DNA of 4,242 nucleotides from a virus (Duplodnaviria; Heunggongvirae; Uroviricota; Caudoviricetes). Every line of letters starts with the position of its first letter. Within the stretch, counting starts at the first letter, position 1. The stretch lies in the IMG/VR virus record IMGVR_UViG_2541047441_000007; one strand, given 5' to 3'. This document shows, in pieces, positions 2,600 to 4,234 of the stretch. The position numbers and the translations under genes were made by a program. The notes under the pieces were generated by a model. It was not told the origin of the DNA and made no database searches. It was given only the letters and a program-made list of their open reading frames with translations.

Positions 2600-3157
2600 A
2601 TGACCACTATTACCAAAGATCGACTGCTGACAATCCAGCATTGGCGCGAAACATACGGACCGGGTAGCAACGTTGTGCTTCCAGCAGAAGAAGCGGAAGA
2701 GCTGGCACGGATTGCGCTGGCATCACTGGCAGCAGTATCGGATGAACGAGCAGCCTATGAATTATTTATGGAGAAGCGTTTCGGAGAATCTGTAGATCGC
2801 CGCAGAGCAAAAAATGGCGATAGAGATTACATGGTATGGGATATGGCGCTTGGCTGGATTATCTGGTGTCACCGCGCCGCCATGCTTCAGGCTGGAAACT
2901 TTCGGGAAAATAAGGGTTCGTCAACCAATAATTTTCGGATAATCTCGGAAACGTCAACCAACTCTCCGGCAATCCCTGATGAGGTGTTGTCCGCAATCCT
3001 GAAGGTCGCCAGGCTTCGTGCAGATTTCGATGCTTCTGAAGTGGACAGGCGAGGTATCGGTAGTTGTCTGGATGAGGCCGAGCAAGAACTTATCGTTACC
3101 ATTAACGAATACGCCAGTCAGATCGCAGTAGAAGCGACACAGGGGGAGAACCAATGA
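2600..3157 (+). CDS. Hypothetical prophage protein (185 aa; possibly ead/Ea22-like, unverified)
   Basis: ATG at 2600 preceded by AAGGTGA (2586-2592), 2 nt after the upstream stop. Stop TGA at 3155-3157 overlaps the next start (ATGA). Confidence 0.65.
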   Translation: MTTITKDRLLTIQHWRETYGPGSNVVLPAEEAEELARIALASLAAVSDERAAYELFMEKRFGESVDRRRAKNGDRDYMVWDMALGWIIWCHRAAMLQAGNFRENKGSSTNNFRIISETSTNSPAIPDEVLSAILKVARLRADFDASEVDRRGIGSCLDEAEQELIVTINEYASQIAVEATQGENQ

Positions 3158-3231
3158 GCCGGCCAGATGCATTTGCAGGCGTTGCTATAGCTATTGCTTT
3201 TCTAGTATATGTTATTTGTCGGTGGGGGTAA
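3154..3231 (+). CDS. Unannotated 25-aa hydrophobic mini-protein (MSRPDAFAGVAIAIAFLVYVICRWG), predicted single TM helix
   Basis: ATG 3154 overlaps the upstream TGA (ATGA). Strong SD AGGGGGAG (3141-3148) at 5 nt spacing. Hydrophobic core AFAGVAIAIAFLVYVI. TAA stop at 3229-3231. Absent from the ORF track because of the length cutoff. Confidence 0.5.
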   Translation: MSRPDAFAGVAIAIAFLVYVICRWG

Positions 3232-3266
3232 AAACGTTCGCCGGGATTCACACCAAAGGAGGGAAT

Positions 3267-3371
3267 ATGTCGGATGATATTTCACTGGCAATGGAAGGCG
3301 CTCTGGCTGTTATTGCTGTTGTGGGTGTTTACTGCCTGGTTGTGTTTTTGATGGAGCGCCTGGGGAACTGA
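3267..3371 (+). CDS. Unannotated 34-aa hydrophobic mini-protein (MSDDISLAMEGALAVIAVVGVYCLVVFLMERLGN), predicted single TM helix
   Basis: ATG 3267 preceded by a near-consensus SD AAGGAGGG (3256-3263). Acidic N-terminus, then a 20-residue hydrophobic stretch, then a charged tail. TGA stop at 3369-3371. Confidence 0.55.
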   Translation: MSDDISLAMEGALAVIAVVGVYCLVVFLMERLGN

Positions 3372-3381
3372 ATTCATTCCG

Positions 3382-3397
3382 TATGGGAATTCCCATA
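3382..3397. promoter_or_regulatory. Perfect 16-bp palindrome TATGGGAATTCCCATA; candidate operator or hairpin between the mini-protein genes and the hok promoter
   Basis: The sequence equals its own reverse complement. It lies 10 bp after the 34-aa ORF stop and 14 bp upstream of the predicted hok -35. As RNA it could form a 6-bp stem with an AAUU loop, but no U-tract follows. Confidence 0.4.
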
Positions 3398-3411
3398 TCG
3401 GGCAAAACGGT

Positions 3412-3439
3412 TTGCTGTAAAGCGAGAGTTAAGTAGAAT
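3412..3439 (+). promoter_or_regulatory. Predicted sigma70 promoter of the hok/mok mRNA
   Basis: -35 TTGCTG (3412-3417), 16-nt spacer, -10 TAGAAT (3434-3439). The predicted start (~3446, GGGUGCUUGAGG...) matches the conserved 5' end of hok-family mRNAs as I recall it from plasmid R1. Confidence 0.6.
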
Positions 3440-3491
3440 TGCTGCGGGTGCTTGAGGCTGTCTGCCTCGGGCATGCCACCGTAAGGCAGAC

Positions 3492-3566
3492 AGAGAAAAG
3501 CCCCAGTTAACATTACGCGTCCTGCAAGACGCTTAACATTAATCTGAGGCCCAATCTATGCTTCAC
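3492..3566 (-). ncRNA. sok: Sok-like antisense RNA (type I antitoxin), predicted
   Basis: Antisense to the hok mRNA leader and the mok start codon (3558-3560). On the minus strand an imperfect 16-bp hairpin (complement of 3506-3543) is followed by GGGGCUUUUCUCU. Position and layout parallel R1 Sok. The ends are approximate. Confidence 0.5.
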
Positions 3567-3770
3567 AAACGTAGGTTAGCCTCTTACGCGCCGAAAGGCA
3601 AGGAGAAGCAGGTTATGAAGCAGCAAAAGGCGATGTTAATCGCCCTGATCGTCATCTGTTTAACCGTCATAGTGACGGCACTGGTAACGAGGAAAGACCT
3701 CTGCGAGGTACGAATCCGAACCGGCCAGACGGAGGTCGCTGTCTTCGTAGACTACGAATCTGAGAAGTAA
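3558..3770 (+). CDS. mok: mok-like reading frame (modulator of killing) overlapping hok, here in frame with hok
   Basis: ATG at 3558 opens an ORF that continues in frame through hok. The leader sequence AGCCUCUUACGCGCCGAAAGGCAAGGAGAAGCAGGUUAUG resembles the R1 mok/hok junction. Whether it is translated as a separate product is unknown. Confidence 0.5.
   Translation: MLHKRRLASYAPKGKEKQVMKQQKAMLIALIVICLTVIVTALVTRKDLCEVRIRTGQTEVAVFVDYESEK
3573..3601 (-). promoter_or_regulatory. Predicted promoter of the Sok-like antisense RNA
   Basis: On the minus strand: -35 TTGCCT (plus 3601-3596), 17-nt spacer, -10 TAACCT (plus 3578-3573). This puts the start at ~3566-3565, inside the 5' end of mok, the same layout as R1 sok (TTGCGC / TATCCT from memory). 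Confidence 0.45.
3615..3770 (+). CDS. hok: Hok/Gef family type I toxin (51 aa, small membrane toxin)
   Basis: Translation MKQQKAMLIALIVICLTVIVTALVTRKDLCEVRIRTGQTEVAVFVDYESEK is near-identical to chromosomal Hok/Gef proteins as recalled (HokD/RelF, HokC/Gef). ATG 3615 with GGAG at 3602-3605; TAA stop at 3768-3770. Confidence 0.9.
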   Translation: MKQQKAMLIALIVICLTVIVTALVTRKDLCEVRIRTGQTEVAVFVDYESEK

Positions 3771-3889: not shown

Positions 3890-4234
3890 ATGAAAAAGGT
3901 ATTGATTGCAGCACTTATTTCTGGTGTGTCTTTTGGCGCTTTTGCACAGCAGGGCGGTTTCCAAGGGCCTGAAGCAGAGCGTTCAACAGTAGCGCAGGCA
4001 AAAGAACTGAAGGATGATGCATGGGTTATCCTTGAAGGGAGCATCGTTAAAAAAGTGGGTGATGAACGTTATGAGTTTCGTGACAATAGCGGGACAATTG
4101 TCACGGATATCGATGACAGCATATGGGCCGGTCAGAATGTTTCTCCGAAAGACAAAGTAAGAATTGAGGGTGAAATTGATAAAGACCTGAGCAGTGTTGA
4201 AGTGGATGTAAAGGCACTGAAATTATTAAAGTAA
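3890..4234 (+). CDS. YgiW/YdeI (BOF) family periplasmic OB-fold protein with N-terminal signal peptide
   Basis: ATG 3890 preceded by AAAGAGGA (3877-3884). Signal peptide MKKVLIAALISGVSFGAFA with a likely cleavage after AFA. The mature part (...AWVILEGSIVKKVGDERYEFRDNSGTIVTDIDD...VRIEGEIDKD...VEVDVKALKLLK) fits the BOF/YgiW pattern from memory. TAA stop at 4232-4234. Confidence 0.85.
   Translation: MKKVLIAALISGVSFGAFAQQGGFQGPEAERSTVAQAKELKDDAWVILEGSIVKKVGDERYEFRDNSGTIVTDIDDSIWAGQNVSPKDKVRIEGEIDKDLSSVEVDVKALKLLK

Follow-up and report, generated by a model that had tools for sequence, protein, structure and literature searches.

Small membrane proteins are systematically under-annotated. The small inner-membrane regulators of Escherichia coli, such as AcrZ, MgtS, KdpF and CydX, are core-genome products of ~25–50 amino acids (aa) with one transmembrane (TM) helix, and the T4 Imm, lambda/P22 SieB and holin/antiholin proteins are longer, usually with at least two TM helices or with defined positions in a lysis cassette. 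Toxins of the Hok/Gef family are carried by lambdoid prophages, and the hokW-sokW locus of prophage Sp5, cloned alone, works as a toxin-antitoxin pair (PMC8621323). Here we analyze a stretch of 4,242 nucleotides (nt) from a Caudoviricetes virus (IMG/VR record IMGVR_UViG_2541047441_000007), hereafter the window, in which two short open reading frames (ORFs), ORF1 of 25 aa and ORF2 of 34 aa, lie directly upstream of a hok gene. We propose that ORF1 and ORF2 are, with good probability, real genes for single-pass inner-membrane mini-proteins, which lie in the moron-like accessory early region of a lambdoid prophage of the Sp6/933W type, and that their products would bind specific membrane partners.

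Two candidate small membrane-protein genes upstream of hok

With 74 ORFs of 20 aa or more in the window, ORF length by itself carries no weight; what sets ORF1 and ORF2 above chance is the strength of their Shine-Dalgarno (SD) sites, their conservation and their codon-position pattern. A sequence-only reading of the window had described two hydrophobic, unannotated mini-ORFs of 25 and 34 aa, neither recognized as a named small protein, each with a strong ribosome-binding site (RBS) and one TM helix, the first joined to the upstream gene by an ATGA overlap, which together with Hok would make three consecutive single-helix peptides. Most of this description was borne out. Both ORFs are present as described (Table 1). 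The predicted SD duplex with the 3′ end of 16S rRNA has an energy of −12.1 kcal/mol for ORF2, tied for strongest and listed second among 192 candidate starts on both strands, and of −9.4 kcal/mol for ORF1 (rank 8), both stronger than the duplex at the hok start (−8.5 kcal/mol). Each peptide contains one uncharged stretch of 17–19 residues and reaches a Kyte-Doolittle mean of 2.7–3.0 over its best 15 residues. The TGA stop of the preceding gene overlaps the ORF1 start (ccaATGAgcc), and the three single-helix peptides lie within ~620 bp. Neither family was matched above threshold in Pfam-A, PHROGs v4, NCBIfam 20 or PADLOC 2.0; the best hydrophobic matches below threshold, obtained with a single variant each, were phrog_38566 (E 0.0065) and PF00854 (E 0.0015, 17.9 bits against a 27-bit cutoff). 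The term unannotated applies to ORF1, for which the RefSeq E. coli and phage records examined, including 933W and Sakai, hold no annotation, and not to ORF2, which is a RefSeq hypothetical protein (ECs_5710 in Sakai). The exact ORF1 sequence is also absent from a collection of 15 billion proteins. These results support the assignment of ORF1 and ORF2 as phage-encoded small membrane proteins.

Translation and conservation of ORF2

In a ribosome profiling (Ribo-seq) study of Sakai, XECs145, with the peptide MCYLSVGVKTFAGIHTKGGN-MSDDISLAMEGALAVIAVVGVYCLVVFLMDRLGN, is listed among the novel translated intergenic genes (Huecker et al. 2017, PLoS One, PMC5597208). XECs145 and ECs_5710 of prophage Sp6 share their stop codon, once an offset of 144 nt between the coordinates of the genome versions is taken into account. 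In lysogeny broth (LB), transcriptome and translatome signals were 79.1 and 346.1 reads per kilobase per million mapped reads (RPKM), with a ribosomal coverage value (RCV) of 4.35 and a coverage of 0.99 (PMC5597208, S2 and S8 Tables). The corresponding values were 121.3, 150.1, 1.14 and 0.84 in the brain heart infusion (BHI) control, and 73.3, 1.1, 0.01 and 0.37 under BHI stress (PMC5597208). The product is predicted to be an inner-membrane protein with one TM helix, and no function, family analysis or link to hok was given for it (PMC5597208). The ribosome occupancy that the sequence-only reading had proposed to look for is thus already published for ORF2. Neither peptide is present in the EDL933 Ribo-seq supplements, and the peptide strings of the two families were not found in the main text of any paper. 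A survey preprint on Hok does not mention small ORFs, neighbors or synteny, and the hokW paper mentions the upstream region only for cloning flanks.

ORF2 is annotated as a hypothetical protein by the Prokaryotic Genome Annotation Pipeline (PGAP) in all E. coli records examined (WP_001278460.1, WP_001278459.1, WP_001278450.1, WP_001278454.1 and others), and other members of the family carry the label "membrane protein" (APJ77383-type). The exact ORF2 peptide is present in the protein collection, where a close 34-aa variant of the same cluster occurs on at least 1000 contigs; the Sp6 copy in Sakai differs by one residue (E30D).

Homologues of both peptides were sought by degenerate DNA patterns and by tblastn. 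Using the downstream palindrome as an anchor outside the ORF, we collected 31 unique ORF2 haplotypes; the ORF is intact in every one of them, with GTG in place of ATG in three. In clade A, the ratio of nonsynonymous to synonymous polymorphism (pN/pS) is 0.19, compared with 1.27 and 3.44 in the other sense frames and with 1.11, 0.35 (wobble-matched) and 3.20 in the antisense frames, and nine of the 14 variable sites fall at third codon positions (3/2/9). Clade B, recovered by tblastn, consists of peptides of the form [MV]LVLKCALAIAAVMAIYCLAVVLMDRLSD (29–30 aa), most of which start with GTG after AGGAGG; they are ~45% identical to clade A, and their DNA cannot be aligned to that of clade A by blastn. 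Clade B has a pN/pS of 0.22, with variable sites distributed 12/2/18 over the codon positions, and in both clades the sense frames other than ORF2 give values of 0.5–4.8. ORF2 is under purifying selection. Eight alignment columns (L7, L13, A14, Y22, C23, L24, L28 and M29) are invariant in both clades. The family is characterized by a length of 29–34 aa, an L..LA...YCL...LM core, a C-terminal [ED][RH][LF][GS][ND] and a site 5′ of a hokW-type promoter; the window copy matches all invariant columns and has hok downstream.

In phage mEp460 and its relatives, clade B adjoins the hok promoter on its 5′ side, and it is also found on virulence plasmids of Shigella and enteroinvasive E. coli (EIEC), for example Shigella pWR100, where hok is truncated. 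In pWR100 of Shigella flexneri M90T, an intact clade-B ORF2 (MLVLKGTLAIAAVMTIYCLIVVLMERFSD, with SD and ATG) lies at 1516–1605, and what is left of hok is part of its mRNA leader at ~1620–1720, without the hok coding sequence (CDS); ORF2 and the remnant are located ~300 nt upstream of icsP. The same arrangement, clade-B ORF2 with the hok CDS lost, is seen in ~139 Shigella/EIEC plasmids. A scan with degenerate patterns, one genome per species, found the ORF2 family in E. albertii, E. ruysiae and Shigella flexneri only, and on a scaffold of a Collinsella metagenome-assembled genome (MAG). The latter scaffold (Collinsella sp., JAIHTM010000277.1, 3.3 kb) carries a clade-B ORF2 and is probably a contamination.

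The ORF1 family across phages

The window ORF1 appears to be a slightly degenerate member of a widespread family of 27-aa phage peptides, with the consensus M[TN]WPEAF - TM - CRWG, found for example in 933W, Sp5, Sp15 and BP-4795. Its homology to this family is clear, because its DNA aligns with that of the 27-aa copies. Relative to the consensus, the window copy carries the changes W3R and E5D and a deletion of 2 aa, which gives 25 aa, and retains P4, A6, F7, the helix and the CRWG end. The 25-aa variant is stable across O157 genomes, and 343 E. coli genome records contain it at a DNA identity of at least 99%.

A tblastn search with the 27-aa variant gave full-length matches (59–100% identity) in 93–99 phage records, including 933W, VT2-Sakai, VT1-Sakai, BP-4795, Min27, ArgO145 and Vequintavirinae phages. 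In every record examined, the ATG overlaps the stop of the gene before it or lies flush with that stop (ATGA in most records, TGATG in VT1-Sakai), and a GGAGG-like SD stands ahead of the ATG; the genes in front are of the Ead/Ea22-like, EaA, DUF551 and other types. Among 86 unique contexts, 80% show an upstream frame that is open for 50 codons or more and stops at the TGA of the ATGA, and 81 have an SD-like element. The SD and the ATGA overlap persist behind upstream genes whose C-terminal modules are of at least four unrelated kinds. Members also occur with neither hok nor ORF2 nearby, for example beside xis/int in the Stx phages Stx2a_WGPS2 and VT1-Sakai, and in one Vequintavirinae phage.

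The DNA of the family is heavily diverged while the peptide is kept (MTWPEAFTTVGIAMAVALVVYSICRWG, MNWPEAFTAVGVAIAVAFILYSLFRWG, MTWPDAFAIVGVAMSIALIVFAICRWG); across phages, pS is 0.35, and length, start, stop and motifs are maintained. In an IMG/VR search anchored on the first 7 codons only, 121 of 141 matches are exactly 27 aa long, and nearly all end in CRWG. Over the unanchored codons 8–27, pN/pS is 0.46 (0.69 and 1.87 in the other sense frames), and the minimum numbers of substitutions at the three codon positions are 18/11/38. ORF1 is thus under moderate constraint, with strict conservation of length. The sequence-only reading had proposed to trace both frames through prophages and to estimate selection on them. 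Both families proved to be conserved, ORF2 in all haplotypes and ORF1 across the phage records above; the selection estimates favor ORF2 clearly and ORF1 less so. The family-wide value for ORF1 is equaled by an antisense frame.

Several further observations concern individual members of the family. In 933W (NC_000924.1, complement 58826–58909), an unannotated 27-aa gene of the ORF1 family lies between ST933Wp77 and hokW, VT2-Sakai (Sp5) contains a near-full-length homolog by tblastn, and a few 27-aa members have GenBank entries as hypothetical proteins. The peptide of Actinobacillus phage vB_Apl-pPE4 (PP818812.1, 13106–13186) is 100% identical to an E. coli phage version; this record and the Collinsella scaffold with ORF2 resemble cases of contamination by E. 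coli prophage DNA or of a wrongly assigned host. A cluster at 90% identity that contains the 27-aa peptide has a 121-aa DUF551 protein as its representative and could mislead annotation transfer. A natural DUF551-ORF1 fusion was considered and rejected: the 121-aa DUF551 proteins of this mixed cluster end in ...PEPPQEVNQ, without the peptide, and the grouping is a clustering artefact. Finally, an antisense ORF of 49 aa (3102–3251, minus strand) spans the whole of ORF1 in the wobble-matched frame. We do not regard it as a gene, as no SD-like sequence is seen upstream of it and its openness is expected from the GC-rich hydrophobic codons of the sense strand.

Proposed roles of the two peptides

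ORF1 is most likely translated by coupling to the upstream gene whenever the early operon is expressed, because its start overlaps the preceding stop (ATGA) and it has an SD of its own. It would insert with the N-terminus out and the C-terminus in, because the C-terminal Arg is the only basic residue in a peptide that is acidic at its N-terminus. ORF2 would be a constitutively made inner-membrane peptide with its own very strong RBS. The conserved parts are MxWPEAF and CRWG in ORF1, and the YC motif and the C-terminal LM[ED]R in ORF2. Because conservation resides in the termini and a few helix positions, and because the host tolerates efficient translation of ORF2, we suggest with modest confidence that each peptide binds a specific membrane partner in a regulator-like manner instead of forming a general toxic pore. 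Both peptides are presumably non-toxic, and a function in toxicity, exclusion or lysis timing is somewhat disfavored for ORF2. The sequence-only reading had compared the shape of the peptides with type I toxins and with phage proteins for superinfection exclusion or lysis timing, and no observation made here points to any of these roles.

A number of observations weigh against this proposal. For ORF2, Sakai has several near-identical copies, among which the Ribo-seq reads may be shared, a promoter scan found no promoter for ORF2 on the plus strand, and XECs145 was called as an ORF of 162 nt, with a 57-nt 5′ extension that overlaps ORF1 (PMC5597208). A longer ORF2 product of 51–54 aa, starting from TTG at 3216 or from the XECs145 start, is disfavored in that it lacks an SD, overlaps ORF1 and would be broken by a 1-nt indel in strain M18 that leaves the shorter form intact; we favor the 34-aa form because of its strong SD and ATG, the M18 indel and the RefSeq annotation. 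For ORF1, the pN/pS within the hok-linked module is 0.56, with 0.82 and 1.31 in the other frames, and this module includes one haplotype with a stop at codon 3, one in which the loss of 14 nt joins the start of ORF1 to the reading frame of ORF2, and five loci in which ORF1 is shortened by 2 aa at its end; an in-frame 6-nt indel also occurs. The window copy itself has lost the conserved Trp3 and two further residues. The shortest XECs entries in the Ribo-seq gene table are 93 nt, and ORF1 (27 codons) is shorter (PMC5597208). Across the family, the wobble-matched antisense frame of ORF1 has the same pN/pS (0.46) and is open as often (in 83 of 91 members); we prefer the sense frame because the positions of start, SD and stop are fixed. 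The partner-binding mode of action, finally, is one that we infer.

The ORF2 segment and its linkage to hok

ORF2 appears to travel with hokW-type loci on a discrete segment of ~175 nt between 11-nt direct repeats. In 933W-type loci, the sequence runs uninterrupted (...TGGGGATAAAAACGGTTTGC...), with the ORF1 homolog against the hok promoter and a single copy of the repeat; the 933W member of the ORF1 family, MTWPEAFANVGTVMAVVLVVYSICRWR, ends 11 nt before the hokW −35. In clade-A loci, the ORF2 segment is placed between two GGGTAAAAACG copies. Given the single repeat in 933W-type loci and the two copies flanking the ORF2 segment, the window reads as a 933W-like ORF1-hokW-ygiW layout plus an ORF2 cassette. 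The flanking repeat is compatible with an insertion as well as with a deletion by slippage between the repeats. There was little to suggest a miniature inverted-repeat transposable element (MITE) or an integron cassette: neither terminal inverted repeats nor an attC-like core were seen by eye. The palindrome after ORF2 is a perfect 24-mer, CCGATATGGGAATTCCCATATCGG, in most haplotypes. The region folds no better than shuffled sequence (z = −0.9) and no U-tract was found in it, which does not support an intrinsic terminator or an unusually stable RNA structure; the palindrome may instead be bound by a protein or act as a signal for recombination or processing.

Linkage to hok was assessed from both sides. 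A hok CDS is present within 700 nt downstream in 99 of 113 evaluable ORF2 loci (88%). Three clade-A exceptions contain a hok that is split by an insertion of ~1.1 kb just before the start codon, and resemble in this the chromosomal hok loci of K-12 inactivated by insertion sequences. These three are IMG/VR prophage contigs, with the insertion at ~625–1720 in L041, ~7368–8464 in L073 and ~1097–2193 in L117, corresponding to about 3604 in the window. From the hok side, 77 hokW-type loci were surveyed, with the 5′ end of the hok mRNA as the anchor. Eight carry ORF1 together with clade-A ORF2, ten carry clade-B ORF2, ten have an ORF1-family gene only (seven of them directly against the hok promoter; 933W belongs here), and 49 (64%) have neither peptide, so that ORF2 is carried by ~23% of the loci. 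ORF2 was not found in VT2-Sakai (Sp5), in 933W or in any other Shiga toxin (Stx) phage record by DNA search and tblastn, and only the last 15 nt of ORF2 are left in paa-linked hok loci.

The foremost alternative to our proposal, which we nevertheless regard as unlikely, is that ORF2 is a third component of the hokW locus, which either tempers or potentiates Hok, or serves as a translated upstream ORF (uORF) that, with the palindrome, insulates hok from read-through. Consistent with this, two old ORF2 clades are both situated directly 5′ of the hok promoter, the association with hok is frequent and its three clade-A exceptions hold an interrupted hok, and ORF2 ends 40 nt before the hok −35, followed by the 24-nt palindrome. 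However, most hokW-type loci do without ORF2, the fold and the missing U-tract of the palindrome do not suggest insulation, Shigella pINV retains an intact clade-B ORF2 with its SD after the loss of hok, and the linkage may be mere co-inheritance of neighboring mosaic modules. Moreover, the absence of ORF2 from 933W and other Stx phages, the function of the cloned Sp5 hokW-sokW (PMC8621323) and the 15-nt remainder in paa-linked loci show that hok/sok has no need of ORF2; nor does it require the ORF1 peptide. A related and slightly less probable picture is that the ORF2 family is a hitherto unrecognized protein component of some hokW-type loci, a constitutively translated peptide that binds Hok or its target in the inner membrane and sets the killing threshold. 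In the same picture the ORF1 family, whose members adjoin the hokW promoter in 933W and Sp5, would comprise a new class of translationally coupled phage membrane effectors acting during induction.

Type I toxin and remnant explanations

The sequence-only reading had likened both peptides to type I toxins. In its full form, this explanation holds that ORF2, ORF1 or both are toxins in their own right, silenced by cis-antisense RNA, so that the region would be a stack of three toxin modules. Size, hydrophobicity and the single TM helix resemble such toxins, ORF2 adjoins a proven type I locus, and promoter-like sites are present on the minus strand at 3291–3264, opposite the SD and start of ORF2, and at 3232–3204; in the scanned region, four promoter-like sites were found against 1.0 expected. 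These minus-strand hexamers are, however, weak (9 of 12 consensus matches) and not conserved: natural variants alter them, A8V changing TTGCCA to TTACCA and the GTG starts changing CATATT to CACATT. No terminator-like site was found on either strand, and Rfam gave no match in 3154–3371. The efficient translation of ORF2 in exponentially growing lysogens (RCV 4.35 in LB) is the opposite of what is expected for a repressed toxin, and the coupling of ORF1 to an ordinary operon gene is not a type I architecture. Neither peptide resembles Hok or the toxin models of Pfam and NCBIfam; searches with ORF1, ORF2 and their relatives gave no Pfam match to PF01848 (HOK_GEF) at E values up to 1. BLASTP of ORF2 against Hok gave nothing, and an hhalign comparison of the ORF2 family with a Hok alignment yielded a probability of 3.9%, on which basis we also rejected ORF2 as a degenerate duplicate of hok. 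We therefore consider the toxin explanation improbable.

The remaining explanation, that the window ORF1 is a decaying non-functional remnant or a DNA-level element (a recombination boundary, or a regulator of ORF2 or hok) that makes no protein, would account for the hok-linked pN/pS close to that of other frames, for the nonsense, frameshift and truncation variants, for the loss of W3 and two residues of the N-terminal region, for the almost invariant DNA of the ORF1 3′ half and the 35-nt spacer, and for the position of the segment exactly at a mosaic junction, but we give it little credence in view of the diverged DNA with maintained length, start, stop and motifs across phages, the members that occur without hok or ORF2, the SD and ATGA that persist behind four unrelated upstream gene ends, and the stability of the 25-aa variant in E. 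coli.

Genomic context of the window

The window is an early/accessory region of a lambdoid prophage of the E. coli O157 type. Positions 3100–3420 are 99.7% identical to E. coli O157:H7 TX 265-1, and are matched at a coverage of at least 80% in 662 of 5426 complete E. coli genomes. The gene order is that of Sakai prophage Sp6: DUF4406, DUF4752, Ead/Ea22-like, a small gene, a mosaic gene and hok. No exact copy of the full window was found in the complete E. coli genomes searched, and because the best match there reaches only 86% coverage at 98.6% identity, we consider the window a mosaic variant.

The mosaic gene directly upstream of ORF1 is similar to Sakai ECs_1518 (1760–2347 of the Sakai segment, L382) over its N-terminal ~110 aa and differs at the C-terminus. 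Here the DUF551 C-terminal domain of ECs_1518 is swapped for an unrelated module of ~75 residues, with the SD and the ATGA junction to ORF1 kept. Downstream, the position of the inferred hok promoter fits the start of the Rfam match at 3446, and this promoter was not called by the promoter scan. A YgiW/YdeI OB-fold gene follows 3′ of hok at 3890–4234, as it does in 933W.

Table 1. Coordinates of ORF1, ORF2 and surrounding features in the window
Feature	Position	Strand	Basis
Upstream early-region gene, mosaic, 185 aa	2600..3157	+	phrog_14306/660/60; no Pfam match
ORF1 SD site AGGGGGAG, 5 nt before ATG	3141..3148	+	Duplex energy with 16S rRNA 3′ end
ORF1, ATG start, 25 aa, MSRPDAFAGVAIAIAFLVYVICRWG	3154..3231	+	Translation; apparent derived member of the 27-aa M[TN]WPEAF...CRWG phage peptide family
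Direct repeat, left copy, 11 nt, GGGTAAAAACG, includes ORF1 stop codon	3226..3236	+	Junction comparison
ORF2 segment, 173 nt (175 nt in most haplotypes), with ORF2 SD, ORF2 and palindrome	3237..3409	+	Junction comparison
ORF2 SD site AAGGAGGG, 3–4 nt before ATG	3256..3263	+	Duplex energy
ORF2, ATG start, 34 aa, single TM helix, MSDDISLAMEGALAVIAVVGVYCLVVFLMERLGN	3267..3371	+	RefSeq hypothetical family WP_001278460 / Sakai ECs_5710 / XECs145
Palindrome CCG(A)TATGGGAATTCCCATATCGG, directly after ORF2 stop, one A missing here	3379..3401	.	Sequence
Direct repeat, right degenerate copy, GGGCAAAACG here, GGGTAAAAACG in most haplotypes	3400..3409	+	Junction comparison
Inferred hok promoter, TTGCTG - 16 nt - TAGAAT, just 5′ of hok mRNA	3412..3439	+	Sequence reading
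hok mRNA leader / sok region	3446..3620	+	Rfam RF01794 "sok", 114.9 bits
mok, 70 aa	3558..3770	+	ORF translation
hok, 51 aa	3615-3770	+	PF01848, E 4e-23; identical to 933W HokW

Discussion

New results are the family of ORF1 and the strict coupling arrangement of its members, a second clade of ORF2, and a presence or absence of ORF2 beside hokW that resembles that of a cassette. They also add what the sequence-only reading had missed: the membership of ORF1 in a large family that occurs mostly apart from ORF2, the second clade of ORF2 at other hok loci, and the restriction of the ORF2 segment to a minority of hokW-type loci.

The 27-aa family is carried by medically important Stx phages (933W, Sp5, Sp15 and BP-4795) and is absent from the RefSeq annotations of 933W and Sakai as well as from Pfam, PHROGs and NCBIfam. 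As an ORF1 homolog can lie directly against the hokW promoter, published hokW-sokW deletions may also remove or alter a neighboring peptide gene. ORF2 is a translated, conserved small-protein candidate, and its presence/absence polymorphism of ~175 nt beside a type I toxin allows a clean test of Hok modulation. Should ORF2 indeed act on Hok, a protein-level layer would be added to a system thought to be controlled by RNA only; should both peptides be ordinary accessory peptides, the annotation of prophages is still improved.

Among known systems, XECs145/ECs_5710 is ORF2 itself. With Hok/Gef (PF01848, HokW of 933W), the two peptides share a small size, a single TM helix and a lambdoid prophage location, and they are its neighbors, ORF2 being linked to hokW-type loci and ORF1 homologs abutting the hokW promoter in 933W. 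They depart, however, from the Hok/Gef layout of ~50 aa with an N-terminal TM helix and a periplasmic Cys region: ORF1 (25–27 aa) and ORF2 (29–34 aa) both end a few residues past the helix, and thus lack the periplasmic C-terminal domain with its conserved Cys (LCE motif). They also lack a mok-like overlapping leader ORF, a match to a sok-like RNA and the fold-back mRNA architecture, and ORF2 is translated during normal growth. T4 Imm, SieB and holin/antiholin proteins are likewise phage-encoded hydrophobic peptides of accessory regions, but none was matched in PHROGs, and ORF1 and ORF2 lie outside any lysis cassette. AcrZ, MgtS, KdpF and CydX have no sequence relationship to ORF1 or ORF2, which differ from them also in residing on mobile prophage DNA, yet the length, the single TM helix, the conserved short termini and the placement in ordinary operons or behind an RBS of their own are alike, and by this analogy the small inner-membrane regulators are the favored functional counterpart of both peptides.

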